A DNA stretch of 64,000 nt from Escherichia coli (GTDB taxonomy: Bacteria > Pseudomonadota > Gammaproteobacteria > Enterobacterales > Enterobacteriaceae), in NCBI RefSeq assembly GCF_009931435.1, contig NZ_CP043414.1, one strand, 5' to 3'. The position numbers and the translations under genes are program-made. A model generated the notes under the pieces. The model was not told where the DNA came from. It ran no database searches and saw only the letters and a program-made list of their open reading frames with translations. Shown in pieces: positions 1 to 49,576 of this stretch. Position 1 is the stretch's first letter. Each line of letters begins with the position of its first letter.

Positions 1-1
1 T

Positions 2-1537
<1,536 letters not shown>

Positions 1538-1546
1538 GGAAGCTCG

Positions 1547-3631
1547 ATGGAAAGCAAACGTCTGGATAATGCCGCGCTGGCGGCGGGGATCAGCCCCAAT
1601 TACATCAATGCCCACGGTAAACCGCAGTCGATTAGCGCCGAAACCAAACGGCGTTTGCTTGACGCGATGCATCAACGTACCGCCACGAAAGTGGCGGTAA
1701 CGCCAGTCCCGAATGTCATGGTCTATACCAGCGGCAAAAAAATGCCGATGGCGGTGGAGGGCAGCGGCGAATATAGCTGGCTGCTGACCACCGAAGAAGG
1801 AACGCAATACAAAGGCCATGTAACGGGGGGCAAAGCGTTCAATTTACCGACGAAGTTGCCGGAAGGTTATCACACGTTGACACTCACCCAGGACGACCAG
1901 CGCGCGCATTGCCGGGTGATTGTCGCCCCGAAACGCTGTTACGAACCGCAGGCGTTGCTGAATAAACAAAAGCTGTGGGGCGCCTGCGTCCAGCTTTATA
2001 CGCTGCGATCGGAAAAAAACTGGGGTATTGGGGATTTTGGCGATCTCAAAGTGATGCTGGTGGATGTGGCAAAACGTGGCGGGGCTTTCATCGGTCTGAA
2101 CCCGATTCATGCGCTCTATCCGGCAAATCCGGAAAGTGCCAGTCCGTATAGCCCGTCTTCTCGTCGCTGGCTAAATGTGGTTTATATCGACGTTAACGCC
2201 GTCGAAGATTTCCATCTTAGCGAAGAGGCTCAGACCTGGTGGCAGTTACCGACCACGCAACAGACGCTGCAACAGGCACGGGATGCCGACTGGGTCGATT
2301 ACTCCACCGTCACTGCGCTGAAAATGACAGCATTGCGGATGGCGTGGAAAGGTTTTGCGCAACGTGATGATGAGCAGATGGCCGCGTTTCGCCAGTTTGT
2401 TGCAGAGCAGGGCGACAGCCTGTTCTGGCAGGCGGCGTTTGACGCGTTACATGCCCAGCAAGTGAAAGAAGACGAAATGCGCTGGGGCTGGCCTGCATGG
2501 CCAAAGATGTATCAGAACGTGGATTCACCAGAAGTGCGTCAGTTCTGCGAAGAACATCGTGATGACGTCGATTTTTATCTCTGGTTGCAGTGGCTGGCTT
2601 ACAGCCAGTTTGCCGCCTGCTGGGAGATAAGCCAGGGCCATGAAATGCCGATTGGCTTGTACCGTGATCTGGCGGTTGGCGTAGCAGAGGGTGGAGCAGA
2701 AACCTGGTGCGACCGGGAGTTGTATTGCCTGAAAGCGTCGGTGGGCGCGCCGCCGGATATCCTCGGCCCGTTGGGGCAGAACTGGGGATTGCCGCCGATG
2801 GATCCGCATATCATCACCGCGCGTGCCTATGAACCGTTTATCGAGCTGTTGCGTGCCAATATGCAAAACTGCGGCGCGTTGCGAATTGACCATGTGATGT
2901 CGATGCTGCGTTTGTGGTGGATACCGTATGGCGAGACGGCAGATCAGGGCGCGTATGTTCACTATCCGGTAGATGATCTGCTCTCGATTCTGGCACTCGA
3001 AAGTAAGCGCCATCGCTGCATGGTGATTGGTGAAGACCTCGGCACTGTACCGGTAGAGATTGTCGGTAAACTGCGCAGCAGCGGTGTGTACTCCTACAAA
3101 GTGCTCTATTTCGAAAGCGACCACGAGAAGACATTCCGCGCGCCGAAAGCGTATCCGGAGCAGTCGATGGCGGTTGCGGCGACACACGACCTGCCTACAC
3201 TGCGTGGCTACTGGGAGAGCGGGGATTTAACACTGGGCAAAACGCTGGGGCTGTACCCGGATGAAGTGGTATTGCGCGGTCTGTATCAGTATCGCGAACT
3301 GGCGAAGCAAGGGTTACTGGATGCACTGCATAAACATGGTTGCCTGCCAAAACGTGCGGGGCATAAGGCATCGTTAATGTCGATGACGCCGATGCTTAAT
3401 CGTGGTTTGCAACGTTATATCGCTGATAGTAACAGTGCTCTGTTAGGGCTTCAGCCAGAAGACTGGCTGGATATGGCCGAACCGGTAAATATTCCCGGAA
3501 CCAGTTACCAGTATAAAAACTGGCGACGTAAGCTTTCTGCAACGCTTGAGTCGATGTTTGCCGATGATGGCGTGAACAAGTTGCTGAAGGATTTGGACAG
3601 ACGGCGCAGAGCGGCTGCGAAGAAGCAGTAG
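1547..3631 (+). CDS. malQ: 4-alpha-glucanotransferase (amylomaltase)
   Basis: 694-aa ORF, recognised as MalQ; position directly after malP. Confidence 0.95.
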   Translation: MESKRLDNAALAAGISPNYINAHGKPQSISAETKRRLLDAMHQRTATKVAVTPVPNVMVYTSGKKMPMAVEGSGEYSWLLTTEEGTQYKGHVTGGKAFNLPTKLPEGYHTLTLTQDDQRAHCRVIVAPKRCYEPQALLNKQKLWGACVQLYTLRSEKNWGIGDFGDLKVMLVDVAKRGGAFIGLNPIHALYPANPESASPYSPSSRRWLNVVYIDVNAVEDFHLSEEAQTWWQLPTTQQTLQQARDADWVDYSTVTALKMTALRMAWKGFAQRDDEQMAAFRQFVAEQGDSLFWQAAFDALHAQQVKEDEMRWGWPAWPKMYQNVDSPEVRQFCEEHRDDVDFYLWLQWLAYSQFAACWEISQGHEMPIGLYRDLAVGVAEGGAETWCDRELYCLKASVGAPPDILGPLGQNWGLPPMDPHIITARAYEPFIELLRANMQNCGALRIDHVMSMLRLWWIPYGETADQGAYVHYPVDDLLSILALESKRHRCMVIGEDLGTVPVEIVGKLRSSGVYSYKVLYFESDHEKTFRAPKAYPEQSMAVAATHDLPTLRGYWESGDLTLGKTLGLYPDEVVLRGLYQYRELAKQGLLDALHKHGCLPKRAGHKASLMSMTPMLNRGLQRYIADSNSALLGLQPEDWLDMAEPVNIPGTSYQYKNWRRKLSATLESMFADDGVNKLLKDLDRRRRAAAKKQ

Positions 3632-3642
3632 AGAGCGGTTGA

Positions 3643-3665
3643 TGCCGGATGCGATGCATCCGGCA
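3643..3665. terminator. inverted repeat between convergent malQ and gntT
   Basis: Palindrome tgccggatgc/gcatccggca between two convergent stop codons; weak T-run. Confidence 0.3.
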
Positions 3666-3675
3666 GTCAGTATTA

Positions 3676-4992
3676 TCAAATCACCATATTCAGCAGCAGA
3701 CAGCCTACCAGACCGCACACCGAGATAATGGTTTCCAGCATCGACCAGGACTTGATGGTCTCGCCGATAGTCAGGTTAAAGTACTCTTTGAACAGCCAGA
3801 AGCCCGGATCGTTCACGTGAGAGAAAATCACACTACCGGAACCAACCGCAATAACCATCAGTTCCGGGCTAACACCCGTCGTTGCAATTAGTGGTGCCGC
3901 GATACCCCCCGCAGTGATTGCCGCAACGGTTGCGGAACCCAGCGCGATACGCAGTACGGCGGCAATCGACCAGGCCATCAGCAGCGGAGAAATGTTGGTT
4001 TCGTGCATCATGGAAGCAATGTATTTGTCCACGCCGCTGTCTACCAGCACCTGCTTGAACGCACCGCCACCACCGATGATCAACAGCATCATCGCGATGA
4101 TTTTGATGGAAGAAACCAGCGTGTCGTTAATCTGATCCATTGAACGACCACGGTTCAGACCAAAGGTGAACATCGCAATCAACACGGCAATCAGCGTTGC
4201 CATTACCGGGTCACCGAGGAACTCCGCCACTGGCAGGAAAGCGTGACCTTTCGGCAGGATCATTTCGGCAATTGCACGCATCGCCATCAGCACAACCGGC
4301 ACCAGAGAAGTCCAGACGCTGACGCCAAAGCTTGGCATCTCTTCTTCGCTGAAGGTTTTCGCGCTGTACAGACCTTCCGGGATTGGCTTATCGATACCTT
4401 TCAGCACGCGAGCGTAAACCGGACCCGCGAGAATAACGGTCGGGATTGCCAGAATAGTCCCGTACAGCAGGGTTTTACCCATATCGGCATTGAAAATGGT
4501 GGCAATCGCAGTTGGGCCCGGATGTGGCGGCAGGAAGCCGTGGGTCACAGACAGCGCAGCCGCCATTGGTACACCAACATACAGCAGCGGAATATTCGCG
4601 GAAGCCGCGATGGTAAACACCAGCGGCAGCATTAGCACGAAGCCCACTTCATAGAACAGGGCAAAACCGACAGTAAAACCGGTTAACACTACCGCCCATT
4701 GGATGTGTTTTTTACCAAATTTGGCAATCAGCGTGGTGGCGATACGTTGTGCACCACCGCAGTCTGCCAGCATTTTGCCCAGCATCGCGCCAAAACCCAT
4801 GATCAGGGCAAGGCTACCGAGCGTCCCGCCGACACCAGCTTTGATGGAGCCAATAACTTTATCCAGCGGCATTCCCTGCATTAATCCAACAGCAAGCGCC
4901 ACGAGGACGAGAGCGATGAATCCGTTCATTTTGAAGCGGATCATCAGGAGCAACAACAAGATTACACCGATAGCAACAATGACTAATGGCAT
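3676..4992 (-). CDS. gntT: high-affinity gluconate:H+ symporter
   Basis: 438-aa hydrophobic ORF recognised as GntT; GntR-type operators upstream. Confidence 0.93.
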   Translation of the reverse strand: MPLVIVAIGVILLLLLMIRFKMNGFIALVLVALAVGLMQGMPLDKVIGSIKAGVGGTLGSLALIMGFGAMLGKMLADCGGAQRIATTLIAKFGKKHIQWAVVLTGFTVGFALFYEVGFVLMLPLVFTIAASANIPLLYVGVPMAAALSVTHGFLPPHPGPTAIATIFNADMGKTLLYGTILAIPTVILAGPVYARVLKGIDKPIPEGLYSAKTFSEEEMPSFGVSVWTSLVPVVLMAMRAIAEMILPKGHAFLPVAEFLGDPVMATLIAVLIAMFTFGLNRGRSMDQINDTLVSSIKIIAMMLLIIGGGGAFKQVLVDSGVDKYIASMMHETNISPLLMAWSIAAVLRIALGSATVAAITAGGIAAPLIATTGVSPELMVIAVGSGSVIFSHVNDPGFWLFKEYFNLTIGETIKSWSMLETIISVCGLVGCLLLNMVI

Positions 4993-5011
4993 GATTTACC
5001 TGGCCTTTCAT

Positions 5012-5029
5012 TTGTTATGGGTAACGTCA
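5012..5029 (-). promoter_or_regulatory. putative GntR operator (gntT leader)
   Basis: Minus-strand sequence gacgTTACCCATAACAaa resembles the GntR operator half-site pattern. Confidence 0.4.
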
Positions 5030-5148
5030 ATTTTCTGACGACAAACTCTAATTATCCCAATCGGGAACAGAGATATTGCGGCACCACGACTGATACCCAC
5101 TAAAACTAATTATTGTAGTCAGATGTCAGGAGTATGTTTGGTACCCGC

Positions 5149-5168
5149 GTGAATGATACGGGTAACAT
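5149..5168 (-). promoter_or_regulatory. putative GntR operator (gntT promoter)
   Basis: Minus-strand ATGTTACCCGTATCATTCAC matches the gntT GntR operator as I recall it. Confidence 0.5.
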
Positions 5169-5289
5169 CTGGCGTTTGAGAATCACCAGAGCGGGGTAAA
5201 TTTAAATTATGAGAGGTTGGTCATATTATCGCGGGGAAACGTAGGGACTGGATTTGCCGAGGCAATGTAGCGCCAACGCCTGGCAGACG

Positions 5290-5322
5290 GCCCGATAAGA
5301 CGCTTTAGCGTCGCATCGGGCA
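5290..5322. repeat. REP-like extragenic palindrome
   Basis: gcccgataagacgctttagcgtcgcatcgggca; imperfect palindrome of the REP family between nfuA and gntT. Confidence 0.5.
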
Positions 5323-5343
5323 ATCTATAAAAGAGAGGATAAC

Positions 5344-5919
5344 TTAGTAGTAAGAGTGTTCGCCGCGCTGGTGTTCGGTGAGATCGCGTACACCTTTCAG
5401 CTCCGGGAATTCGTTCAGCAGCTGCTTTTCGATCCCTTCTTTCAGCGTCACATCGACCATTGAACAACCGTTACAACCGCCGCCAAATTGCAGAATGGCG
5501 TAACCGTCTTCGGTGATTTCCATCAGCGAAACGCGACCACCGTGACCGGCAAGCTGTGGGTTGATCTGCGACTGCAGCATATACTCCACGCGCTCCATCA
5601 GCGGCGCATCGTCAGCTACTTTGCGCATTTTGGCGTTTGGGGCTTTCAGCGTCAGCTGAGAACCCAACTGGTCGGTAACAAAGTCGATCTCTGCATCTTC
5701 CAGGTAAGGCGCGCTTAACTCATCAACATACGCGGTCAGCAGGTCAAATTTCAGGGCAGTGTCGGTGGCTTCCACAGCGTCCGGCGGACAATAAGAAACG
5801 CCACATTCAGCGTTAGGCGTGCCAGGGTTAATCACAAATACGCGGATTTGTGTCCCTTCTTCCTGATTTGCCAGCAGTTTGGCAAAGTGCGCTTGTGCAG
5901 CATCGGAAATACGGATCAT
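5344..5919 (-). CDS. nfuA: Fe-S cluster carrier protein NfuA
   Basis: 191-aa ORF; C-terminal Nfu CxxC motif ([10 protein letters not shown]); recognised as NfuA. Confidence 0.93.
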
Positions 5920-5977
5920 AGTAATGGCCTAATAGTTGACTATTTTAGTTGGTTATAATACGCCCATCATCGAGGCT

Positions 5978-6679
<702 letters not shown>

Positions 6680-6680
6680 A

Positions 6681-7469
<789 letters not shown>

Positions 7470-7497
7470 ACAGCTGTTGAAATGGCGAGACAGAACT

Positions 7498-8376
7498 TTA
7501 CTGGCTCGCCGCAGCCAACTCCTCTTCTGACACCCCGGTAAAACGCATGATGTCCGCAAGAGGGACTCCGGATTCAAGCATTATTTTTGCTATATGCAAG
7601 GCTTTGGATTGTTCCCCCTCTTGCCGCAATCTTTCCGCAATAGTCATTAAACTCTCCTTGTGTTTCGGTGAACGTTCGGCCACACCATCGATAAAATCAT
7701 TAAAACGTACTGCATCGCCAGTTTGCAGTATGTAATTAAACAGCCCTTTGATTTGTCTGTCATTAGCGTATCCACTACTTAATAAGCAGGCCATTTGCTC
7801 TACCAGTCCCATCAGATCGCGTTGACGAATATGTTTTTGAATTAACTCCAGCAGCGCCATGCGTCGGTGCTGCATGATTTCATCATCAGGCATGACGGTG
7901 ACATCAATCAGCGGAAATGCAGAGGCATAAAGCTGCCTTGCCAGTTTGGGATCGGCGAAACAATCAAGCCAACACAGCGAATAGGGATAGGGGCTTTCAA
8001 TACCATGGTAAAACAACAATGGCACCACCATCGGCAACGTTTTGTATCCGGCATCCAGGTGATTTTGCATTGCGGCAATGGCGTAACGCATCATGCGAAA
8101 TGCGATCAGTTTGTTTGAGGTGCTTTGATGTTCAATCAGACAATAGATATATCCCGGTCCTTGTTCCGTTTTCACCGACCACAGCACGTCGGAATAGCTT
8201 TCACGCAGATCGTCATCAATAAAGCTGCTCGACTCCAGCTTGAGGGTTTTCATATCACAGAGCGCGTGAATAGGTGCCGGTAAATGGAACGCAAGAAAAT
8301 CGCGCGCCGTCTCCGGTTGGCGTAAAAAGAGTTTGAACAGCGCATCGTGTGGGGTGGAACTCTGCTTTTTGCTCAT
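7498..8376 (-). CDS. rpnA: Rpn (transposase_31/PD-(D/E)xK) family recombination-promoting nuclease
   Basis: 292-aa ORF recognised as YhgA/RpnA; conserved core-genome position between bioH and feoC. Confidence 0.85.
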
Positions 8377-8577
8377 GGCGTTCCTTCACCTGTTGTTTGA
8401 ATGCCGCGACTCTACGCGCCACTCCACACCTGTGCATTAGCGAGTTTTCATCCCTGCGAGACGCTTTCAGAGGAATTTACGTCGCGCTGCAAGGGTTGCA
8501 TTTTTATGGAAAGCCGCACGCAAAAAAGCCCGGTTGCAAACGCATACCGGGCTTTCAAAACAGGTAGTAAAACAAGG

Positions 8578-8814
8578 TTAACGTAACGCCCACCACTCAC
8601 GCAGGCAGGCTTTGCCTTCCGGGCAGCTTTTACAACTGCCAGAGAGGCAGCCGTCAGGTTCTTCCTGAATTCGCACGGCTTTGCCCATACTTTCCAGCTG
8701 TTGCAGCATGGCGTTAATCATGGGTTGCGGAGTGTTCAATGTCTGGCTTATCTGGGCCGCTTCCATACGGCCCCGTAATGCCAGCAAATCGCGCACCTGA
8801 ATAAGTGAAGCCAT
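8578..8814 (-). CDS. feoC: ferrous iron transport protein FeoC
   Basis: 78-aa product with C-terminal Cys cluster; start overlaps feoB stop. Confidence 0.88.
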
Positions 8815-11135
8815 TAATGGCAATCACCGGTGGTGCTGGCTGCGCAGCAACTGCTTACCGATTTGCGTGTTGCCAGCAGTTCGATATCGACCCGGCTACG
8901 CGCGCGACGCAGCAAACCGATAACCACGATGTTAAACAGGATAACCGCCAGAATGCATACCAGGCTGTAGGTTGGATGCTGGCTGTAGCTGGCGACCTGG
9001 TAGAACAATGTTGCCAACGAGTAAGCGATATTTAGCCCCCACAGGATGGAGAAGCCCATCCAGCCACGGCTTGATTCACGGGCGATGGCTCCCATTACCG
9101 AGATACATGGTACATACAGCAGGACGAAAATCAGGTAGCTGTAAGCTGCTGCTGCGCTACCGAATTTCTGATCCATCACGCCCATCGCCCCGGTACCCAT
9201 TTCGCCGTCGCCTTTGCTCGCTTCAATGGGGTTCATCAGTACGCTAAGACTGAAGGTGTCTTTCAGGCTCTGCCAGGTTTCATCTACCGCGCTGAATAGC
9301 TCTTCACCGAGGTTAAATTCCGCCGGATTGAACTCTTCGTCCTGAATATTTTCTGCGGTGTAGAGGGTGTTGAGCGTACCCACCACCACTTCTTTCGCCA
9401 TTGCGCCTGTAAACAGGCCAACAGTTGCCTGCCAGTTATCTTCATGTACGCCAATCGGCTTGAAGACCGGGGTGATCACCCGGCTGACGGAAGCCAGCGC
9501 CGAGTCGTTGATGTTATCGACGATTTTCCCGCTCAGAGAGAAACTGTTGAAAGCGCTCAGGAAAATGCTGACGATGATAATCACTTTACCAGCACGCAGA
9601 ACGAAACCTTTCAGACGCTGCCAGGTCTGGATAATCAGGCTTTTAACGTGTGGTACATGGTAGACCGGTAGCTCCATGACAAACGGCGTCGCTTCACCGC
9701 GCATGATGGTGTACTTGAGCATCAGGCCAGTCAGCACCGCCATCACAATACCGAGCATATACAGCGAGAAGACCGCCAGCGCACCGTTCTGCCCGAAGAA
9801 GGCAGCCGCGAATACGGCGAAGATAGCCAGACGCGCGCCGCAGGACATAAACGGTGCCATCATGATGGTCATCAGACGTTCACGCGGTGCATCAAGCGTA
9901 CGTGCGCCCATTACCGACGGTACGTTACAACCGAAACCAACGATCAGCGGTACAAAGGATTTCCCGGGCAAGCCCAGCGCCTGCATCAGGCGGTCCATCA
10001 CAAACGCCGCACGCGCCATATACCCGGAGTCCTCAAGGAAGGAGAGGAACAGGTACATCATGCCGATCTGTGGCACCAGTGGCAGAACGGTGTTAATACC
10101 GCCACCCAAGCCCTGGGCGAGGAAGATAGTCAGCCAGTCCGGGAAGTGGAGCGTGTAGCCAATCCACTGAATACCATGCACAAATAGCGCCACGGAGCCG
10201 ACGTCAAACAGCGGCTGTAACGCCCCGCCGATGTTGATAGCCAGCAGGAACATCAGGTACATCACAAAGAGGAAAATCGGCAGACCGAGGAAACGGTTGA
10301 GCACGATTTTATCTACCGCAGTGGTGAAACGGCTGGGTTCTGCCGTCAGGGTGTTGCTTACCACATCACAGATGGCAGCAATGCACTGGTAACGCGCATC
10401 GGCAATGTGCAGCGCCGGATCGTCCATCTCATTACGCAGACGGGCGAGGGCGGCATCAAGATGCTGCGACGCTTCACCGGCGTAGGCGCGGCTGTAGATA
10501 TCGCCTTCCAGCATTTGCAGGCCCAGCCAGCGACGTTGTTTCAGCGGGATGTCGGAAGGCATCACTTTTGCCAGTGAATCTGCTTCGTTGAGCAGCGGCT
10601 GTGCGTAATGCACCAGTTCCACATTGTCGTTAGCTTTATAGCGGTCAATCGCCAGCTTGAGCGCTTCAATACCCCGACCACGGGTTGATACCAGCGGGAT
10701 CACCGGGCAGCCAAGACGTGCCGACAGCGCATCAATTTCAATGCGAATATTTTGCTTCTCGGCAATGTCGAGCATATTCAGCGCCACGATGCAGGGAATG
10801 CCGAGTTCCAGCAGTTGTAGCGTCAGGTACAGGTTACGCTCAAGGTTAGACGCATCCACCACGTTAATCAGCAGGTCAGCGTCGCCACTCAAAATGTAGT
10901 GACAGGCGATTTGCTCATCGAGCGAGGTCTGCGATGAGATGGTGGTCAGAGAATAGGTGCCGGGCAGGTCCACCAGCGTGACCTGATGATCGGTGGTGGA
11001 GAATTGCCCTTCTTTACGTTCGACGGTAACGCCAGCCCAGTTACCTACACGCTGACGTGCGCCAGTGAGCTGGTTAAATAAGGTTGTCTTGCCAGAATTT
11101 GGATTACCAATTAAGCCAATGGTTAATTTTTTCAT
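8814..11135 (-). CDS. feoB: ferrous iron transporter FeoB
   Basis: N-terminal G-domain ([12 protein letters not shown]) followed by polytopic membrane domain; 773 aa from the MKKLTIG start. Confidence 0.95.
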
Positions 11136-11151
11136 TGTTGTTATCACCGTA

Positions 11152-11379
11152 TTAACAGGAAACCGCTTCCACTTCTAATAAGGCCAGATCTTTTTTGCGT
11201 AATACCAGGCTCACTCGACGGGTTTCGATATGAATGGGGTCGCCAAGTGGAGCGACGCGCACCACATTAAAAGAGGAGCCAGGTAACATGCCAAGAGAAA
11301 GCAGTTTTTGGCGATATGCCGGGCTGATTTCACGGGAAAAGCCAGTGATTTTCCACGCAGTATCTGGAGTGTATTGCAT
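11152..11379 (-). CDS. feoA: ferrous iron transport protein FeoA
   Basis: 75-aa ORF immediately upstream of feoB; recognised as FeoA. Confidence 0.92.
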
Positions 11380-11492
11380 AGGTGCCTACTTGTTTCTCAT
11401 TAACTGGATAACTACCTCATGGGGCGTTTGACAGCGACATGAGACCAGATGATTTGCCAACGAAGGAGAGATTAAATAATCAACAACACAAT

Positions 11493-11511
11493 GATAATGA
11501 GAATGGTTTCT
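11493..11511. promoter_or_regulatory. putative Fur box upstream of feoABC
   Basis: gataatgagaatggtttc matches roughly 15 of 19 positions of the GATAATGATAATCATTATC consensus, about 115 bp upstream of the feoA start. Confidence 0.4.
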
Positions 11512-11762
11512 ATCAGCAATACTTAAAATGTGTGCGAATGTTGGTTTAGATAATAATCTGCGTGAATGTTGATGTGGCTCAAGGTTATATCGCAGCGAAA
11601 ATATAATTCGAATGGCGAATTATCAGGGCGGGTTAATGTTTAATTAAGGTTTCAGTTGTTAATGAAGTGATAAATATTGACGAAATATAGTGTGAGTTTG
11701 GTTGTGGAATAAAAATGCCGGAGATATTCTCCGGCATTTTTATGTCAGGCATGGCGTTTATT

Positions 11763-11796
11763 GCCAGATGCGGCGTGAACGCCTGATCTGGCCTAC
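11763..11796. repeat. REP element
   Basis: gccagatgcggcgtgaacgcctgatctggcctac, close to the canonical REP sequence; a near-identical copy lies at 41632. Confidence 0.7.
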
Positions 11797-11835
11797 GATC
11801 TTGTGCAAATTCGAACCGTAGGCCAATCAGGAGGT

Positions 11836-14157
11836 TTAACGTTTTTTGCCCATTGCCGCCGCCAGCGCATCCATCATCGCGCTGTTACCGGCAGGCTGCG
11901 CTTCACGACCGCGTGGTTTGGCTGCCGGGCGGTTGTTTTGCGGACGTTCATTACCGCCGCCGCGACGGGCGTTGGTTTCGCCAGGCTGCTCGTCCAGACG
12001 CATAGTCAGGGCGATACGTTTACGCTGAAGATCCACTTCCAGCACTTTCACCTTCACAATGTCGCCCGCTTTCACCACGGTATGCGGATCTTCCACAAAC
12101 TTGTTCGACAATGAAGAGATGTGAACCAGGCCGTCCTGATGCACGCCAATATCGACAAACGCGCCAAAGTTGGTGACGTTGGTCACCGCACCTTCGAGGA
12201 TCATACCCGGTTGCAGGTCGTTCATTGTCTCGACGCCATCGGCAAACTGAGCGGTTTTAAATTCCGGACGCGGATCGCGACCCGGTTTTTCCAGCTCTTT
12301 GATGATGTCAGTTACTGTCGGCACACCGAATTTCTCATCAGTAAAGTCAGACGCTTTCAGGTTACGCAGTTCGCTGCTGTTACCCATCAGATCTTTCAGT
12401 GCCTGCTGTGTTGCTGCCAGAATGCGTTCCACCACCGGATAGGCTTCCGGGTGAACAGTAGAGGCGTCCAGCGGGTTGTCACCGTGGTTAATGCGCAAGA
12501 AACCTGCGCACTGCTCGAAGGCTTTCGGCCCCACACGGCTCACTTTCAGCAGTTGCTGACGGTTCTGGAACTGACCGTTCTCATCGCGCCAGGCCACGAT
12601 GTTTTGCGCCATCATGCGCGTCAGGCCCGCCACGCGGGTTAACAGCGGAACGGAAGCGGTGTTGAGATCGACGCCAACGGCGTTTACGCAGTCTTCTACT
12701 ACTGCATCCAGTTTGCGGGCCAGTTGCGTCTGGCTGACATCATGCTGATACTGACCTACGCCGATAGATTTCGGATCGATTTTCACCAGCTCCGCCAGCG
12801 GATCCTGCAAACGGCGGGCGATAGACACTGCGCCACGCAGCGAAACATCGAGATCCGGGAACTCCTGCGCCGCCAGTTCGGAAGCCGAGTAAACCGACGC
12901 GCCTGCTTCGCTGACGATCACTTTCTGTGCGGTCACTTTCGGAAACTGCTTCTGAACGTCGAGATAGAAACGCTCGGTTTCGCGGGAAGCCGTACCGTTA
13001 CCGATTGCCACCAGTTCAACGTTATGTTTTTCACACAAGGCAGCAACGGTCATCGCTGCTTTTGCGGCTTGTCCGGTGTGCGGATAAATGGTGTCGGTGG
13101 CCACCAGTTTACCCGTCGCATCGACTACCGCCACTTTTACCCCAGTACGCAGACCCGGATCGAGGCCCATCGTTGCACGCAGTCCGGCAGGAGCCGCCAT
13201 CAGAAGATCGTGCAGGTTACGGGCAAAGACGTTGATTGCTTCATCTTCCGCGCGTTCGCGCACGGTACCCATCAGTTCGGTTTCCAGGTGCATCAGCACC
13301 TTGATGCGCCAGGTCCAGCTCACCACGCCTTTGCGCCAGCTATCCGCCGGGGCATTGTTCAGGCGCAGACCGAGGTGATCCATGATGATTTGCTCGCAAT
13401 AGCTCTCTTTTGGCGGTTCGTCGAACTGCGGATCGGCATTTAGCGAAAGCTGGAGTACGCCTTCGTTACGCCCACGGAACATCGCCAGCGCGCGGTGAGA
13501 AGGCACCGTTGACAGCGGTTCGTGATGATCGAAATAGTCGCGGAATTTCGCCCCTTCCTCTTCTTTACCGTTCACCACCGTAGAAACCAAATGCGCGTTC
13601 TTCCACAGATAATCACGCACTTTCGCCAGCAGCGCGGCATCTTCGGCAAACCGTTCCATCAGGATATAGCGCGCGCCGTCCAGCGCGGCTTTGGTATCTG
13701 CTACGCCTTTATCGGCATCAACATATTGTGCAGCGGCGACTTCTGGCGTGTGCGACGGATCGTTCCACAGCAGGTCGGCCAACGGCTCAAGCCCTGCTTC
13801 AATAGCAATTTGCCCGCGGGTGCGGCGTTTAGGTTTGTAGGGCAGGTAGAGGTCTTCGAGTTCGGTTTTACTTAAGGTGGCGTTGATAGCATTCGCCAGT
13901 TCGTCGGTGAGTTTACCTTGCTCGGAAATGGACTTGAGGATTGCCTGACGTCTCTCTTCCAGCTCGCGCAGATAGCTCAGACGCGTTTCCAGATTACGCA
14001 ACTGCGTGTCATCCAGACCGCCGGTGATTTCCTTACGATAACGTGCGATAAACGGCACGGTATTCCCTTCGTCAAGCAGGCGAACGGCAGCGTCAACCTG
14101 TTCCGGGCGCGCCTGAATTTCACCCGCAATAATGCGGCAGAACGAATCATTCATCAT
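11836..14157 (-). CDS. tex: Tex-like transcription accessory protein (S1 domain)
   Basis: 773-aa ORF recognised as YhgF/Tex; C-terminal S1 RNA-binding region. Confidence 0.93.
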
Positions 14158-14253
14158 GGTTTGAGTTCATCTTTTCGGATCAAAAATCAGGGGATAGTTA
14201 TACGGACTGGCTGGCAAAAATGCCAGCCATCGGCAGGAGGTTAAGACTCTTCC

Positions 14254-14730
14254 TTACGGTTTCACGTACTCGATAGCATTAACATACCAGCTCGCTTCCC
14301 CGGCAGGGGTATTGACCACCGCCAGATCGCCCACCTCTTTTTTCAGCAATGCGCGGGCCATTGGGGAATCGATAGAGATGTAATCTTTACGGCCAAAAAT
14401 TTCATCGTAGCCGACAATACGAAAACGGTGAGTCACGCCATCGTCGTTTTCAATCTCCACCCATGCGCCAAAAAAGACTTTGCCTTCCTGTTGCGGGGAG
14501 TAATCGACGATTTTGAGATTTTCCATGCATTTAGTGAGATAGCGCACGCGACGGTCGATTTCACGCAGACGCTTTTTATTATACTGATAGTCAGCATTTT
14601 CGCTGCGGTCGCCCAGACTTGCAGCCCAGGTCACTTTTTTTGTGACCTCCGGGCGCTCTTCACGCCAGAGATAATTTAGCTCTTGTTTGAGTTTTTCATA
14701 CCCTTCCCGGGTAACCAGGGGCGTTTTCAT
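14254..14730 (-). CDS. greB: transcription elongation factor GreB
   Basis: 158 aa from MKTPLVTREGYEKLKQEL; ORF track shows a 12-codon upstream extension. Confidence 0.93.
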   Translation of the reverse strand: MKTPLVTREGYEKLKQELNYLWREERPEVTKKVTWAASLGDRSENADYQYNKKRLREIDRRVRYLTKCMENLKIVDYSPQQEGKVFFGAWVEIENDDGVTHRFRIVGYDEIFGRKDYISIDSPMARALLKKEVGDLAVVNTPAGEASWYVNAIEYVKP

Positions 14731-14957
14731 CTCGTTGATTCCCTTTGTCTGTTTGATAATGCGCACATTGGGTATAACGTGATCATATCAACAGAATCAA
14801 TAATGTTTCGCCGAATAAATTGTATACTTAAGCTGCTGTTTAATATGCTTTGTAACAATTTAGGCTGAAATTCATACCAGATTTAGCTGGTGACGAACGT
14901 AAGCTTTTTTAAGAATACACGCTTACAAATTGTTGCGAACCTTTGGGAGTACAAAGA

Positions 14958-17026
<2,069 letters not shown>

Positions 17027-17034
17027 ATAAAACA

Positions 17035-17064
17035 GGAGGCGAAGGTGCCTCCCGTTTTATTTTG
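17035..17064 (+). terminator. rho-independent terminator after envZ
   Basis: Stem ggaggc/gcctcc followed by cgTTTTaTTTT. Confidence 0.7.
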
Positions 17065-17189
17065 TGCACTCAGTATCTACTGAATGAATACGGTTTCAGA
17101 CATCGGCACCATACGAAGTAAAGTGTACTGTAAGCTGATTGCAGGCTAGCGTATCCTGATTAGTAAAAGCACACTAAAGGAATAGCTTG

Positions 17190-18473
17190 ATGCAACTTAC
17201 CAACGAAGAACAAGTACAGATTGCTCGTATAAAAGAAAAAATCCCACGCATTGCCGCACTGGATCCTGAATGTAAGTTATTCGGTTCTGAAGGTTGGAAA
17301 TATCAATGGCCGAAGCCTGCCAGCGAGGCGGAAATAGCTTCCTGGGAGAAAAAACATAGCGTCACTTTGCCACGGGAATATCGAATTTTTCTTCGCTATA
17401 TCGCTAATGGCGGTCCGGCACATGCCTACGGTCTTGAATCTTTAGGCGGTACAGATATTTATGGCGATATAACAAAAGAAAGCCCTGTACCGCTTTATAT
17501 GACGCAGCAGGATGTTGATGTGTTGAATGCTGGCCGTACAGAAGATGATGAAGAATATAGTTTTTTTGACGGCGCATTGACCATTCTCACCCTGGGATGT
17601 ACTTATGATATTTGCCTGGTGGTGACGGGGCAGTATCGCGGAAGGTTAATGCTGACTGATGGTGATGAAGATTATCCGTTTGATTTTATATATGATAAAA
17701 ATTTCCTCAACTGGTATGAACGCTGGCTGGACGATTTTATTGCTGGCATGAGTATGAAGGGTTTCGATAGAAGTTTGCCAGGAACGCAAATTCAACTGCG
17801 TGAGTGGTTTTTAACTGAGAAAATCCCGGATTTACGTAGATCCATTTTATTCTCGCTATGCCGTTTTCCACAGATAGAACCCGAAACTTTTGCCCTTTGG
17901 GAACATGTTTGCCGCACAGAGAATGATAAAGAATTGTGTGAAGAGGCATTCATAAGATTACGCCAAAAAAAAGTTTCTTGTGCTGCAGATATTTTTCGAC
18001 TCTATTTTACAATGCCAGATGAATTACGTGATATTGCTATTAAAGATCTCCGTTTTGCCTGTAGAGATAGTGTGGTGAATATTGAGGATTATATTCATTC
18101 ACTGTTAATAATAATGCCTGAACTTGACGATGACACTCTATCCTCAGCTGTCTTTGCTATACGAGAAACAGAGTATAATAAATATGATACTTTTCTGCCG
18201 CTTCTCGAACGTATCACTGATGACCGTCAGCAAACATTATTGTGGGCGATGAGTAAGGTGCCTGATTTCAATGAAAGCCGAGGATTCGTTGAGTTGGTAT
18301 TACCGCTTTTTGCATCATCAAAGATGGAGAATGTAAGGAAGGCTATTTTGTTGCTCATTGAAGTTAAAGATAATCGTATTCCACCATTGGTTGATGAAGC
18401 TGCAACTCGTTTCCCTGAACTGACCATTTTACGAGAAAACTACTATCTCAGGACGTGGGGACATAAGCCATAA
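17190..18473 (+). CDS. SMI1/KNR4 (SUKH-1) domain protein with C-terminal helical-repeat extension; accessory cassette gene 1
   Basis: ATG at 17190 preceded by AGGA; N-terminal roughly 190 aa carries SUKH-1 hallmarks (WEKKHSVTLPREYRIFLRYIANGG ... FLNWYERWLDDFI); C-terminal roughly 230 aa is leucine-rich and helical; region visibly AT-rich. Confidence 0.7.
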   Translation: MQLTNEEQVQIARIKEKIPRIAALDPECKLFGSEGWKYQWPKPASEAEIASWEKKHSVTLPREYRIFLRYIANGGPAHAYGLESLGGTDIYGDITKESPVPLYMTQQDVDVLNAGRTEDDEEYSFFDGALTILTLGCTYDICLVVTGQYRGRLMLTDGDEDYPFDFIYDKNFLNWYERWLDDFIAGMSMKGFDRSLPGTQIQLREWFLTEKIPDLRRSILFSLCRFPQIEPETFALWEHVCRTENDKELCEEAFIRLRQKKVSCAADIFRLYFTMPDELRDIAIKDLRFACRDSVVNIEDYIHSLLIIMPELDDDTLSSAVFAIRETEYNKYDTFLPLLERITDDRQQTLLWAMSKVPDFNESRGFVELVLPLFASSKMENVRKAILLLIEVKDNRIPPLVDEAATRFPELTILRENYYLRTWGHKP

Positions 18474-18510
18474 ATTAATGGTTCAGAAATGATCTAACGC
18501 GGAGAAAAAT

Positions 18511-19041
18511 ATGATCAGGGAACATATTCAGCAAGCGATAAATAATAGGTTAGCATTTGATGGCCCATTCAATGTTGTTCCTGAACCTGCAAGCACTGCG
18601 TTTGATAGCCGGATCCCGACATTGAAAAACGGTGTCTGGCAGAAGGCCAGCCCTATGTTGCAGGCGCGTTTTGCACATTGTGGACGTTGGTTAAGCGCTA
18701 CACATGGAAGCTGGCTAAGTATAAGTGACATGGAAACGCTTTGGCAGGAACACATAGAAGATACGTTTCTTGATGAAATCAAAATGAATGCTGTAGCTTC
18801 AAGTGATAATTGGGATAACCATGCCTTGGGACTATTTCGTTCTCATCGCCTGTCACTTTTTGCCGGTAGTGATTACAGTTATGAGATGGTTTTTCTCCTT
18901 TGGCTAGATAGTACCGTTGAGCCAGAGGTCTGGGTTTATGACTGCAATGGGGAATCACGTTATAAAGATCTTAATGATTACCTGAATGCATATATTAATG
19001 ATGACGTAAGCGCCTGTGAGCGCTCCTGGCGAGTAGAATGA
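18511..19041 (+). CDS. hypothetical protein, possibly immunity-like; accessory cassette gene 2
   Basis: 176-aa ORF, ATG with GGAG RBS 7 bp upstream; 37 bp after gene 1; no TM segment seen; family not recognised. Confidence 0.55.
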   Translation: MIREHIQQAINNRLAFDGPFNVVPEPASTAFDSRIPTLKNGVWQKASPMLQARFAHCGRWLSATHGSWLSISDMETLWQEHIEDTFLDEIKMNAVASSDNWDNHALGLFRSHRLSLFAGSDYSYEMVFLLWLDSTVEPEVWVYDCNGESRYKDLNDYLNAYINDDVSACERSWRVE

Positions 19042-19664
19042 ATAGCCCCCCTTGCCCCTTTGATCCACAAACCGCACATTACCTCGGTACAGTGCAAATC
19101 CACTACACCTCAACCACCTTCAACGCTGCCGTTAAGCATTATACCTGTTACATTAAAAAGCGTTTTAAAGGGGTTAAATGGGGAATTGGTACCGCTGGCT
19201 TATTGGCTATATTGCCCATGATCCCACAATGGTTGAAACCTTCTCATGACTTTAAACTCAACGCAATCAGTACGTTAATTCTTCTATTAATGTTGCCACT
19301 CCTCTTATCAATGTTCCTGTTAATCAGCAGAAGAATTAACGATTTTAAGTCAAAAACAAAGCAAGTTACTTTTACGAAACCCGTGCGTTATGCGTTTTAT
19401 TTCGAGGGGATTGTTTTTTATGAATCTCATCAGCAGGGCATACTTCGCTGGGAAGATTTTTATAGCATTGAGTATGAAGAAGATTATTTGTGGCTTTTTC
19501 TGCATTTACCGAAGAGTTGGCCCAGAGAAGCGACGAAAGCGTTTTGCGATATTTTCATTCCCACCAGCGCGATAAAAGCGCAGCCTGAACTGGATACGTT
19601 TTTTCGTGAAACACGCCACTCGCTGGATTATCTGTTTGTCCCGTTTAATTCTGACAGAAAATAA
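19038..19664 (+). CDS. two-TM membrane protein with C-terminal soluble domain (YcxB/bacterial PH-like by eye); accessory cassette gene 3
   Basis: 208-aa ORF; start overlaps gene 2 stop by 4 bp (ATGA); two hydrophobic helices (WGIGTAGLLAILPMIPQWL; AISTLILLLMLPLLLSMFLLI) then about 100-aa soluble tail. Confidence 0.55.
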   Translation: MNSPPCPFDPQTAHYLGTVQIHYTSTTFNAAVKHYTCYIKKRFKGVKWGIGTAGLLAILPMIPQWLKPSHDFKLNAISTLILLLMLPLLLSMFLLISRRINDFKSKTKQVTFTKPVRYAFYFEGIVFYESHQQGILRWEDFYSIEYEEDYLWLFLHLPKSWPREATKAFCDIFIPTSAIKAQPELDTFFRETRHSLDYLFVPFNSDRK

Positions 19665-19700
19665 AAAATCCCCCGTATCTGGTGAAACGGGGGATTTCGT
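19662..19700 (-). terminator. rho-independent terminator of pck, also closing the cassette
   Basis: Stem tcccccgt/acggggga; on the minus strand it is followed by TTTTTTA; lies 3 bp after the gene 3 stop and 17 bp after the pck stop. Confidence 0.7.
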
Positions 19701-19716
19701 CGCTTAACTTATCGGA

Positions 19717-21339
19717 TTACAGTTTTGGACCAGCCGCTACCAGCGCGGCACCCGCAGGGGTGTCGGTGTATTTATCGAAGTTGTCGATAAACAGTTTCGC
19801 CAGCGTTTCAGCTTTTTCCTGCCACTGTTCCGGAGAAGCGTAGGTGTTACGCGGATCGAGGATCTTAGTGTCTACGCCCGGCAGTTCAGTCGGGATCGCC
19901 AGGTTAAACATCGGCAGAGTGAAGGTTTCTGCGTTATCCAGCGAACCGTTGAGGATAGCGTCGATAATGGCGCGGGTATCTTTAATGGAGATACGTTTGC
20001 CAGTACCGTTCCAGCCAGTGTTAACCAGATATGCCTGCGCACCCGCCGCTTGCATACGTTTCACCAGCACTTCTGCGTACTGAGTTGGGTGCAGCGACAG
20101 GAACGCCGCGCCGAAGCAAGCGGAGAAGGTTGGCGTCGGTTCGGTGATGCCACGTTCAGTACCGGCCAGTTTGGCGGTGAAGCCAGAGAGGAAGTGGTAC
20201 TGAGTTTGATCGGCAGTCAGGCGAGAAACCGGCGGCAGCACACCAAAGGCGTCTGCGGTCAGGAAGATAACTTTAGTTGCGTGGCCCGCTTTGGAAACCG
20301 GTTTAACGATGTTATCGATGTGATAGATCGGATAAGAAACGCGGGTGTTCTCGGTTTTTGAACCATCGTCAAAATCGATAGTGCCATCTTCACGTACGGT
20401 GACGTTTTCCAGCAGCGCATCGCGACGGATAGCGTTGTAGATTTCAGGTTCCGCTTCTTTCGACAGCTTGATGGTTTTCGCGTAGCAGCCGCCTTCGAAG
20501 TTAAACACGCCATCGTCATCCCAGCCGTGCTCGTCATCGCCAATCAGGCGACGTTTCGGGTCGGTGGAAAGGGTGGTTTTACCGGTGCCGGAAAGACCAA
20601 AGAACACCGCAACATCGCCTTTCTCGCCAACGTTGGCGGAGCAGTGCATAGAAGCGATGCCTTTCAGCGGCAGCAGGTAGTTCATCATTGAGAACATCCC
20701 TTTCTTCATTTCGCCGCCGTACCAGGTGCCACCAATCAGCTGCATGCGCTCGGTCAGGTTAAACGCCACGAAGTTTTCGGAGTTCAGACCCTGTTCTTTC
20801 CACTGCGGGTTAGTGCATTTTGCGCCGTTCATAACGATAAAGTCAGGTTTAAAACCAGCCAGCTCTTCATCGCTCGGGCGAATAAACATGTTTTTGACAA
20901 AATGCGCCTGCCAGGCCACTTCGGTGATGAAACGGACGGAAAGACGCGTGTCTGGGTTCGCACCACAGAAAGCGTCGACAACGAACAGACGTTTACCGGA
21001 AAGCTGTTTGGTCACCAGGCCCTTCAGATGCTGCCAGGTTTCCGGAGAGAGAGGTTTGTTGTCGTTCTTACCTTTGCCTTTATCAGCCCACCAGAAGGTA
21101 TCGCGAGTGGTATCGTCACGGACGATATATTTATCTTTTGGTGAGCGACCGGTGAATATACCGGTATCGACGGCAACGGCACCCAGATTAGTTAACACCC
21201 CGCGCTCATAACCTGTCAGGCTCGGATCGAGCTCTTCCTGATACAGCAGGTCGTAGCTTGGGTTGTAAACGATATCATGTACGTCACTGATACCATAAGC
21301 CTCGAGTTCTTGCGGGGTCAAACCATTGTTAACGCGCAT
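19717..21339 (-). CDS. pck: phosphoenolpyruvate carboxykinase (ATP)
   Basis: 540 aa from [12 protein letters not shown]; Walker-type GLSGTGKTT motif; ORF track extends 23 codons further upstream. Confidence 0.95.
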
Positions 21340-21717: not shown

Positions 21718-23442
21718 ATGGATAACGTTGAACTTTCACCCGCAACACGCTGGGGAATGATTGCTACCGGATTACTTCAGGGACTGGTTTGTTACCTGCT
21801 GATCGCCTGGCTTGCCGGAAAAAATCTCAGTTGGATTGTTTATGGCGTGCCTGCGACCGTCGCGTTTTCATCCGTTTTACTCTTCTCCGTGATCTCCTTT
21901 AAACAGAAGCGCCTTTGGGGATGGCTGGCGCTGGTGTTTATTGCCACGCTGGGAATGAGCGGCTGGCTGAAGTGGCAAACTGATGGCATGAACCCCTGGA
22001 TAGCTGAAAAGGCGCTTTGGGATTTTGGTTGCTATCTGCTGCTGATGGCAATGTTGTTGCTACCGTGGATACAACAAAGCCTTCGCATCCGCAATGACAG
22101 TAGCCGCTATCGCTATTTTTACCAGTCAGTATGGCATAACGTACTTATATTACTGGTGATTTTTCTCGCCAATGGCCTGACGTGGCTGGTACTTTTACTG
22201 TGGGGCGAGTTGTTTAAACTTGTTGGCATCACGTTTTTCAAAACGCTCTTTTTTTCAACCGACTGGTTTATTTATCTCACGTTAGGTCTGGTTACCGCAC
22301 TGGCGGTGATCCTCGCGCGTACACAGTCACGTTTAATCGACTCTATTCAAAAGTTGTTCACGTTAATCGCCACGGGGTTGCTGCCGTTAGTATCATTGCT
22401 AACCCTGATGTTTATCATCACCCTGCCGTTTACGGGCCTGAGCGCGATTTCTCGCCACATCTCCGCCGCCGGGTTGCTGTTGACGCTGGCCTTTTTGCAA
22501 TTGATTTTAATGGCTATTGTCCGCGATCCGCAAAAAGCGTCACTTCCCTGGACGGGGCCGTTGCGTTGCCTGATTAAAACCGCTCTGCTGGCTGCTCCGC
22601 TGTATGTGTTCGTCGCCGCCTGGGCGTTATGGCTGCGGGTCGCTCAGTACGGCTGGACTGTCGACCGCTTGCAGGGCGCGCTGGCGGTGCTGGTGTTACT
22701 GGTATGGTCGCTGGGGTATTTTGTCAGTATCGTCTGGCGTAAAGGGCAAACCCCTCTTGTTCTTCAGGGCAAAGTGAACCTTGCGGTTTCGTTATTGGTG
22801 TTGGTAATACTGGTGCTTCTTAATTCGCCGGTGCTGGATAGTATGCGCATTAGTGCGAACAGTCATATGGCACGTTATCAGAGCGGCAAGAACACGCCAG
22901 ATCAGGTAAGTCTCTACATGCTCGAACAGAACGGTCGCTATGGACGTGCGGCGCTTGAGTCGCTGAAAAGCGATGCCGAGTATATGAAAGACCCGAAACG
23001 CGCACGGGATCTGCTGATGACGTTAGATGGAGAGCAACATCTTCAGGAACAGGTATCGGAAAAAGTATTAGCCGAAAATGTGTTAATTGCCCCAGGCTCT
23101 GGCAAACCGGATACGGCATTCTGGTCGGCCTTAATCCAGGATCGCTATAACGTGATGACCTGTATTGAAAAACACGCCTGCGTACTGGTCGAGCAAGATC
23201 TGAATAGTGATGGTCAGGCGGAGCGGATCCTGTTTGCTTTTAATGATGACAGAGTCATTGTCTATGGCTTTGACCCGGCCAGAAAAGAATGGGACGCGCT
23301 TGATATGAGTATACTTCCGAACGAAATAACGAAAGAAAAATTACTCACAGCTGCGAAGGATGGAAAGCTGGGGACGAGGCCGAAAGCGTGGCGCGATCTG
23401 ACGGTAGATGGTGAAACGCTGGAAATAAACTTAAGCAAATGA
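21718..23442 (+). CDS. yhgE: inner membrane protein YhgE
   Basis: 574-aa polytopic membrane protein divergent from pck; recognised as YhgE. Confidence 0.85.
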
Positions 23443-23498
23443 CAATGCTTTTATCGGATACGACGCTTTATCTTACCAACAATAACTTGTGAATTATT

Positions 23499-23530
23499 GC
23501 GTAGGCCTGGTAAGCGCAGCGCATCAGGCC
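23499..23530. repeat. REP-like palindrome
   Basis: gcgtaggcctggtaagcgcagcgcatcaggcc. Confidence 0.55.
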
Positions 23531-49304: not shown

Positions 49305-49343
49305 TTCTGGGACCGATGTTTTCGCAGAGTATGGAGAAAAATA

Positions 49344-49367
49344 CGCCCTCGGAAAATTCAGAGGGCG
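49344..49367. terminator. bidirectional terminator between yhfS and yhfL
   Basis: cgccctc ggaaaattca gagggcg between two convergent stop codons. Confidence 0.6.
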
Positions 49368-49408
49368 TTAGCTCATTAAATCGGTGTTAGCCGATTTCTG
49401 TCAGAGAC

Positions 49409-49576
49409 TTACTGTGCAGTAGGACCGCAACCGCCAATGATTTTAGAAATAGAAATTGCCGGGTGCAGCAGGTAGTCGTAAGAGCAGTTCTTATCACGGT
49501 TTTCAATATGACCAGTACATGCAGTTAACGTAGCCAGTACCGCACCAACCAGTGCAACTTTAATAAATTTGTTCAT
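49409..49576 (-). CDS. yhfL: small lipoprotein YhfL
   Basis: 55-aa ORF (below ORF-track cutoff) translated by hand: MNKFIKVALVGAVLATLTACTGHIENRDKNCSYDYLLHPAISISKIIGGCGPTAQ; lipobox LTAC. Confidence 0.85.
   Translation of the reverse strand: MNKFIKVALVGAVLATLTACTGHIENRDKNCSYDYLLHPAISISKIIGGCGPTAQ

Follow-up and report, generated by a model that had tools for sequence, protein, structure and literature searches.

A recombinase-free cassette of putative orphan immunity genes in the multi-state envZ-pckA slot of Escherichia cryptic clade I

Between the core genes envZ and pckA, a 64,000-nt stretch of Escherichia coli DNA (contig NZ_CP043414.1 of assembly GCF_009931435.1; here called the window) carries a 2.66-kb block of three genes, g1, g2 and g3, all on the plus strand. 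We interpret this block as a chromosomal cassette of orphan immunity genes that has no recombinase and forms one allele of a multi-state envZ-pckA slot, a reading to which we give a probability of roughly 0.6. In the broad sense, orphan immunity genes are immunity-family genes with no toxin gene alongside; this describes g1-g3, both within the cassette and with respect to its envZ and pckA flanks, and no toxin domain was found in the three proteins and no toxin in the window. g1 and g2 would neutralise polymorphic toxins delivered by Rhs/type VI secretion systems (T6SS) or by contact-dependent inhibition systems, and the likely benefit, because no toxin gene accompanies them, would be protection of the cell from toxins injected by competitors. 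We infer an immunity function for g1 and g2 in this host from family, fold and context; the toxins that they would counter and the transcription pattern of the cassette are likewise put forward as predictions.

The features of the block, in window coordinates, are as follows.

envZ stop codon: 17024-17026, plus strand
envZ terminator hairpin: 17025..17062, both strands, G/C core at 17035-17052 with an A-run before it and a U-run after it
Leader: 17063..17189, plus strand, 127 nt, untranslated, upstream of g1
g1: 17190..18473, plus strand, 427 aa, putative immunity protein with an N-terminal SUKH-1 (SMI1/KNR4) domain
g2: 18511..19041, plus strand, 176 aa, SUKH fold, without a Pfam match
g3: 19038..19664, plus strand, 208 aa, YcxB-family protein, stop codon TAA at 19662-19664
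Cassette-borne hairpin: 19666..19697, minus strand, followed by UUUUUUAUUUU, a pckA terminator by its look
Spacer from this hairpin to the pckA stop codon: 19698..19716, 19 nt, from alignments
pckA: 19717..21339, minus strand, right-hand core flank, stop codon at 19717-19719, from the RefSeq annotation of the equivalent gene

The start of g3 overlaps the stop of g2 by 4 nt, and the GC content of the cassette is 37-45% versus 53-59% in the flanks. Related genomes in RefSeq carry the same three genes, annotated as an SMI1/KNR4 family protein and two hypothetical proteins. Open reading frame (ORF) calls and folding together place g1-g3 between the hairpins at 17025-17062 and 19666-19697, as an earlier note on this DNA had proposed, and its estimate of 3 bp between the g3 stop codon and the right-hand stem was about right (the gap is 1 nt to the extended stem and 4 nt to its G/C core).

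The immunity assignment is carried mainly by the first two proteins. In g1, the Pfam families SMI1_KNR4 (E 2.7e-6) and SUKH_6 (E 3.4e-5) both match residues 43-169, which places the protein in the SUKH superfamily; its C-terminal region probably consists of HEAT repeats, as judged from homologues at 29-49% identity that carry PF13646 HEAT_2. Homologues also carry PF09346, and g1 itself had no match among PDB sequences. g2 has the alpha+beta fold of the SUKH superfamily, which it shares with Tdi1 (8g0k), RhsPI (8bd1) and Atu4351 (6itw), and its family, in which 35 columns are invariant, is conserved in both Proteobacteria and Bacteroidota. In Pectobacterium parmentieri, a g2 homologue of 56% identity lies directly after the Hcp-VgrG-DcrB-PAAR/Rhs genes of a T6SS locus (L010), which is the position of a cognate immunity gene. 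The C-terminal toxin domain of that Rhs protein (L010 7079-7981) recurs in 83 representative proteins (P0077 and P0089 among them), always at the C-terminus, and its relatives include Salmonella enterica Rhs proteins (76%) and Bacteroides and Phocaeicola Rhs proteins (56%). Because the domain recurs in Rhs proteins of Salmonella and gut Bacteroides, a matching toxin family circulates among gut bacteria. Another g2 homologue (57%) is found in an array of Imm19, SUKH, Imm21, Imm32 and Imm17 genes beside a tyrosine recombinase (L021-L023), an arrangement resembling the rAID (acquired interbacterial defence, recombinase-associated) clusters of Bacteroidales (PMC12247911).

The third protein is of a different kind. 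A Pfam search of g3 against YcxB was not significant (E 0.57). Its AlphaFold2 model (pLDDT, the predicted local distance difference test score, of 74) consists of two long hydrophobic helices and a beta-rich, PH-like C-terminal domain, and Foldseek searches of AFDB50 with this model returned YcxB-family proteins at E 6e-10 to 1e-5 with probability 1.0, so that we assign g3 to that family. Every cassette variant in the envZ-pckA slot has g3 as its constant 3' module. The protein, taken to be membrane-anchored, could be a membrane-side immunity factor, or the gene could simply be an old resident of the slot.

Outside the slot, homologues of g1 and g2 are often solitary between core genes, at sites that include Brenneria and Caulobacter. 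g1-like SUKH-HEAT genes (40-57% identity) stand alone at other core-gene junctions, namely yoaA/yoaB in E. coli (L015-L017) and Superficieibacter (L030), once beside a DUF4253 gene, and adjoining dkgA in Klebsiella aerogenes (L011-L013), with no toxin or mobility gene beside them at either the yoaA/yoaB or the dkgA sites. This pattern fits scattered orphan immunity genes and not a fixed three-component machine. A fixed three-gene system was considered and set aside, as g1 homologues occur without a YcxB gene in Superficieibacter, Klebsiella and the yoaA-yoaB slots of E. coli.

The envZ-pckA slot can be filled in at least five alternative ways, of which the cassette is one. In a census of 5,426 complete E. 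coli genomes, 5,424 could be accounted for: 4,074 (75%) have an empty, contiguous K-12-type spacer, 1,331 (24.5%) a nadS/relE pair, 18 the g1-g2-g3 cassette, and one, strain A30, a 346-aa fusion of a HEAT-like domain with g3. A fifth state, consisting of a HEAT gene, a diverged g2 (66%) and a diverged g3, was found in draft genomes and in Escherichia sp. MOD1-EC7003. The RelE/ParE-NadS pair, a toxin-antitoxin (TA) allele, lies on the minus strand (L003 1659-2331). In A30 (L005 4566-5606), a single ORF joins the HEAT-like part to the g3 homologue, parts that are separate genes in Salmonella and E. whittamii, and the flanking EnvZ and PckA proteins have the same RefSeq accessions as those of MG1655. 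Our literature searches found nothing on the envZ-pckA slot.

Alignment of the junctions defined where these alleles part. The K-12 and RelE/ParE-NadS strains have the envZ stop codon and hairpin in common with the window up to ...CCTCCCGTTTT, after which divergence is complete, and homology with K-12 returns only at ATTACAG, the pckA stop. The 45-nt K-12 spacer is thus wholly replaced in cassette genomes, and when compared with all five cassette types on both strands it gave no score above those of shuffled sequences. Since the spacer is both replaced and dissimilar, the two states are alternative alleles and not an insert plus its target. The earlier note had described a clean insertion between the flanking terminators; aligning junctions from strains lacking the cassette, as it suggested, did yield breakpoints, at the end of the envZ hairpin and at the pckA stop, but not a simple insertion into a K-12-type spacer. 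An apparent similarity to the K-12 spacer in a MAFFT alignment, entertained as a deletion scar, likewise scored no better than shuffles.

The carriers form a single lineage. The window is about 96% identical to K-12 along its whole length, and its divergence is therefore genome-wide and not the product of local import. When a core segment 4-8 kb from the cassette was compared, its 18 best matches (98.6-99.0%) were exactly the 18 carriers, the next best match falling to 97.8%, and one carrier, 2013C-4282, is a cryptic clade I strain according to PMC10100065, which lists 453 genomes of this clade. The cassette is fixed in cryptic clade I, being present in 18 of 18 complete genomes and in the window, and is essentially absent from E. 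coli sensu stricto. This distribution bears out the suggestion that the cassette is old. Each of the 18 carriers has all three genes annotated as coding sequences, and in the window, too, their reading frames are open.

Homologues of g3 are confined to Escherichia, Salmonella and close relatives, and when one genome of each species was scanned, g3 turned up in the representatives of three. A close homologue was also named from Escherichia sp. E4742. The gene is found next to pckA in A30, Salmonella, E. albertii, E. whittamii, Escherichia sp. MOD1-EC7003 and locus L018, in gene orders such as these.

E. whittamii: envZ, HEAT gene, g3, pckA
E. albertii type strain: envZ, g1, g2, g3, scars, nadS, relE, pckA
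Escherichia sp. MOD1-EC7003: envZ, HEAT gene, diverged g2, diverged g3, pckA
Salmonella enterica isolate: envZ, HEAT gene, CdiI_5 gene, CdiI_5 fragment, g3, pckA

Some of these loci retain traces of how the slot contents moved. Salmonella enterica GCA_011001715.1 (L008) contains an Escherichia-like tract at 4200-7750 with 90-99% identity versus about 80% in its flanks. Compared with E. coli A30, envZ is 82-84% identical except for its last ~100 nt, which together with the first cassette gene reach 94-99%; g3 follows at 90-93% and the 3' 1.1 kb of pckA at 94-97%, after which identity falls to 78% at a sharp breakpoint near 7750, 1.1 kb inside pckA. This profile marks the tract as imported by homologous recombination, the crossover lying within pckA. 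In E. albertii, three core-gene fragments come after the cassette, namely 55 nt from the 3' end of pckA, a 73-nt internal piece of pckA, and 278 nt comprising the envZ 3' end and its hairpin; nadS-relE and an intact pckA then follow (L007 6690-7101, L028 6647-7013). These scars form a tandem junction of the cassette allele and the TA allele of the slot, and the core-gene fragments show that the cassette carried pieces of its core flanks along. Together, the Salmonella tract and the E. albertii scars support the earlier note's proposal of recombination-mediated movement. Upstream of the cassette in L007, fimbrial usher genes are found in place of envZ, which indicates a local rearrangement, and in E. 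albertii GCA_027564875.1 (L006 4151-5436) g1 is split into ORFs of 296 and 132 aa, which suggests a pseudogene.

Homology among the slot variants sets in with the conserved 5' part of g3, and the modules ahead of that gene differ; for this reason g3 probably serves as an internal homology arm. The cassette, which has no mobility machinery, would be inherited vertically within clade I. Between lineages and species it would move by homologous recombination, with the envZ 3' end and hairpin as the left arm and g3 and/or pckA as the right, and the upstream modules (SUKH-HEAT, a HEAT-only gene, a diverged g2 or CdiI_5 genes) would be swapped ahead of g3.

The left boundary of the slot is the same in every state examined (K-12, TA, A30, Salmonella and L018), namely the envZ hairpin, which folds with -21.5 kcal/mol on the plus and -23.7 kcal/mol on the minus strand (0 of 200 shuffles as stable), was detected on both strands in a terminator scan and looks bidirectional. 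In the leader that follows it in the cassette, conservation between the E. albertii type strain and clade I is about 90%. A leader of this type occurs only in the g1-type cassette, HEAT-type variants having about 35 nt there, and no plus-strand sigma-70 promoter within it passed our scan at a cut-off of 9/12 matches.

On the right, each allele would bring its own terminator to the pckA side. The hairpin at 19666-19697 folds with -20.3 kcal/mol on the plus and -21.3 kcal/mol on the minus strand (z -3.9 and -4.6), and none of 200 shuffles was as stable; it was on neither strand's list in a simple terminator scan. The U-run UUUUUUAUUUU comes after the stem on the minus (pckA) strand, as in a Rho-independent terminator. 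On the plus (cassette) strand the stem is present and the tail, AUUUCGUC, is weak, so that the likeness to such a terminator is partial. With the U-run on the pckA strand and only AUUUCGUC on the other, the hairpin resembles above all a terminator that the cassette supplies to pckA. The hairpin and its 19-nt spacer are absent from the K-12 and TA alleles in the junction alignments, and the TA allele has a different hairpin of its own adjoining pckA. In contrast to its lack of relation to the K-12 spacer, the 19-nt spacer is conserved among g3-bearing states, and the hairpin is kept with g3 in 7 of 7 g3-bearing variants examined, the Salmonella copy having a compensatory stem change from G:C to A:U. 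Thus, what the earlier note took for the terminator of pck, and so for part of the pckA flank, belongs to the variable segment and accompanies g3. Its further idea that the cassette transcript shares this hairpin is possible in so far as the stem forms on the plus strand, but with a tail of only AUUUCGUC it would be a less canonical terminator. In K-12, pckA has no hairpin of its own and the envZ hairpin lies 45 nt beyond its stop codon, which therefore makes the envZ hairpin the sole candidate terminator for pckA in that allele.

Divergence from the E. albertii type strain gives some indication of age. Synonymous divergence (dS) is 0.46 for envZ and 0.39 for pckA, each with a ratio of non-synonymous to synonymous divergence (dN/dS) of about 0.005; the corresponding values are 0.20 and 0.19 for g1, 0.20 and 0.37 for g2, and 0.36 and 0.37 for g3. 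Judged by these ratios, selection on g1-g3 appears purifying but relaxed. By the same measure, g3 would be about as old as the split between E. albertii and clade I, and g1 and g2 look younger than g3, consistent with later exchange; the g1-g2 module may well have been exchanged by E. albertii and clade I once these lineages had separated. Within clade I, the window and one carrier (L001) differ at one position in the 1,284 nt of g1 and by 20 synonymous changes in envZ, and g3 has 8 non-synonymous versus 2 synonymous differences, an unevenness that could stem from recombination within the cassette or from diversifying selection on g3. An ancient g3-bearing state in the genus is the more economical reading, because such states are present in several deep Escherichia lineages. 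The scenario of an ancestral cassette lost in K-12, which the earlier note had named as a challenge to its view, has some support from the g3-bearing cassettes of E. albertii, E. whittamii and MOD1-EC7003 and from the core-like dS of g3, but not from the dS of 0.20 in g1 and g2.

The surroundings of the cassette bear no signature of mobility. The window is collinear with K-12 core genes from malP/malQ to crp, in four collinear blocks up to 49310, of which 1-17058 and 19716-49310 flank the cassette, and with the core genes cysG, nirC, nirB, tsgA, ppiA, fic, pabA, argD, yhfK and crp at 49.8-62.9 kb. Since the rest of the window consists of such core genes, no integrase was found in its 64 kb, nor was any transposase or tRNA, and the cassette block contains no insertion sequence (IS) remnant. 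The best direct repeat at the edges (17050-17064 versus 19639-19653, 13/15 matches) was equalled in 13 of 500 shuffles (2.6%); as a candidate att site it was rejected, given that shuffles reach the same score and that its right copy, 63 nt off the boundary, is part of the g3 coding sequence. Sensitive blastn searches with the cassette DNA found no match in 72,556 plasmid records or in 50,697 phage records, and Rfam returned only sub-threshold chance matches for the cassette region. The absence of mobility genes, IS remnants and edge repeats, noted previously by eye, is thus upheld by ORF calls, K-12 collinearity and a computed repeat search with shuffling.

Elsewhere in the window, only about 500 bp (49305-49822) are found where K-12 has the frlABCDR fructoselysine operon between yhfS and cysG. 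This remainder includes a small lipoprotein-like ORF on the minus strand, at about 49410-49578, which we take to be yhfL. A further stretch of ~97 nt in the yhgE-hslO intergenic region (23422-23517) has no counterpart in the K-12 alignment.

Several other explanations of the cassette have to be weighed. That it is a recent mobile-element insertion (an island, transposon or phage remnant) whose mobility genes lie elsewhere or have decayed is scarcely credible. Its foreign base composition and the marginal 13/15 repeat near its edges would be expected of such an element, but nothing in the K-12-collinear window codes for an integrase, a transposase or a tRNA, both neighbours of the cassette are protein-coding core genes, shuffled sequences equal the repeat and its right copy falls within g3, no plasmid or phage record matches, and the lineage in which the cassette is fixed has diverged internally by about 1%. 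A one-off gain, in which the ancestor of clade I had an empty K-12-like slot, ancestral for E. coli, and received the cassette from an E. albertii-like donor, is a possible, if unlikely, course of events. It would account for the AT-rich composition (37-45% versus 53-59% GC), for the prevalence of the empty state in E. coli (75%) and for the dS of g1 and g2, which at about half that of envZ and pckA suggests transfer after the species split. It is at odds with the g3-bearing alleles of the deep lineages E. albertii, E. whittamii and MOD1-EC7003 and the homologue from E4742, with the core-like dS of g3 (0.36), and with a K-12 spacer that preserves no trace of a split target.

Two further accounts concern function. 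An anti-phage defence or toxin-antitoxin-like system might be suspected from the type II TA pair that fills the slot in 1,331 genomes, from a weak PADLOC match of g3 to PycTM (E 0.0099), and from the 4-nt overlap of g2 and g3, as seen for co-translated partners. We consider this very improbable: NCBIfam, PADLOC and PHROGs hold no significant match to g1-g3 or the A30 fusion, the proteins show no enzymatic or toxin-like domain, the g1 and g2 homologues are single elsewhere with no conserved triad, and the modules ahead of g3 are freely swapped. Also improbable is a non-functional, slowly decaying remnant retained only through linkage with its envZ and pckA neighbours. It would fit the lack of a demonstrated function, the broken g1 of one E. 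albertii strain, the fusion of g3 to its upstream gene in A30, and the excess of non-synonymous over synonymous changes in g3 within clade I (8 versus 2); yet the genes are annotated as coding in 18 of 18 carriers and open in the window, dN/dS values of 0.19-0.37 over a dS of 0.2-0.36 point to purifying selection, and the g2 family is conserved across two phyla with its 35 invariant columns.

The interpretation that we prefer, a recombinase-free cassette of orphan immunity genes in a slot with several alleles, has observations of its own to contend with. No toxin partner or protection phenotype has been shown for g1-g3 in Escherichia. The cognate position is known from a single example, the Pectobacterium homologue of g2 at 56% identity, and neither g1 nor g3 yielded one; neither Pfam nor PDB sequences matched the C-terminal toxin domain of the Rhs protein at that locus, and a literature search found no link between YcxB and immunity. 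The g1 homologues elsewhere, solitary between core genes, are uninformative. One difference in the 1,284 nt of g1, against 20 synonymous differences in envZ, is unlike simple co-divergence within clade I. Direction, finally, is ambiguous, because g1 and g2 have half the dS of the flanks (0.20 versus 0.39-0.46) and g3 matches them (0.36).

Comparison with known systems helps to place the cassette. Acquired interbacterial defence (AID) systems, which also have a recombinase-associated form, were originally described in 2019. In gut Bacteroidales, they consist of immunity genes without an adjacent toxin, SUKH members among them, and are presumed to defend against the toxins of others (PMC12247911), as we propose for g1 and g2; a g2 homologue (57%) sits within an array of that kind, and the matching Rhs toxin domain occurs in Bacteroides. 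The cassette is not itself an rAID cluster, as it has no tyrosine recombinase or conjugative-element context. It also has two or three genes instead of a long array, a fixed address between core genes, exchange through flanking homologous recombination, and a distribution that is clade-fixed instead of strain-variable. A more far-reaching idea, which we regard as quite doubtful, is that Escherichia and Salmonella maintain a dedicated, recombinase-free immunity slot, in which g3 and its terminator would act as a permanent docking module and homology arm, g3 would be a new membrane-associated immunity or sensing component, and unrelated immunity families (SUKH-HEAT, SUKH, HEAT and CdiI_5) would be swapped ahead of it, even across species, making the slot a functional analogue of Bacteroidales rAID that relies solely on homologous recombination.

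Rhs/T6SS effector-immunity pairs are similar in that the g2 family is found directly after an Rhs C-terminal toxin and shares the SUKH fold of solved T6SS and Rhs immunity proteins; they differ in that no Rhs, VgrG, PAAR or toxin fragment occurs in or beside the cassette, whose 127-nt leader is non-coding. Mobility-gene-free variable slots between core genes, or recombination hotspots, are known in E. coli from pangenome studies. The envZ-pckA slot shares with them alternative contents at one core junction, a common empty state and turnover through flanking homologous recombination, and is set apart by its very small size (0-2.7 kb), its allele-specific terminator on the pckA side, and g3 as a shared internal homology arm. 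Also related are the orphan cdiA-CT/cdiI and rhs-CT/rhsI modules found in Enterobacteriaceae (PMC3150448), which likewise stack immunity genes on E. coli and Salmonella chromosomes, and the Salmonella allele of the slot does hold CdiI_5 genes. Classical modules of this type lie downstream of a full cdi or rhs locus and keep toxin C-terminal fragments, which allows recombination with the main gene (PMC3150448), whereas the cassette has neither a parent locus nor a toxin fragment. It is thus unlike its closest counterparts in lacking both a recombinase and a parent toxin locus, in its fixed core-gene address, and in its constant YcxB gene with a built-in terminator.

In conclusion, these findings do not overturn current ideas; they add a well-resolved enterobacterial example to the literature on orphan immunity and draw attention to the YcxB family. 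The locus shows spread between species without a mobile element, through a crossover inside pckA in Salmonella and a core-gene scar in E. albertii. It also carries a warning for annotation, in that a hairpin adjoining a core gene may not be that gene's own, the pckA terminator changing with the slot allele. Shiga-toxin and enterotoxin producers are emerging from cryptic clade I (PMC10100065). If our interpretation is correct, this lineage carries a fixed, lineage-marking pair of orphan immunity genes, and g1 and g2 may protect it against the Rhs/T6SS toxins in circulation among Salmonella and gut Bacteroides.

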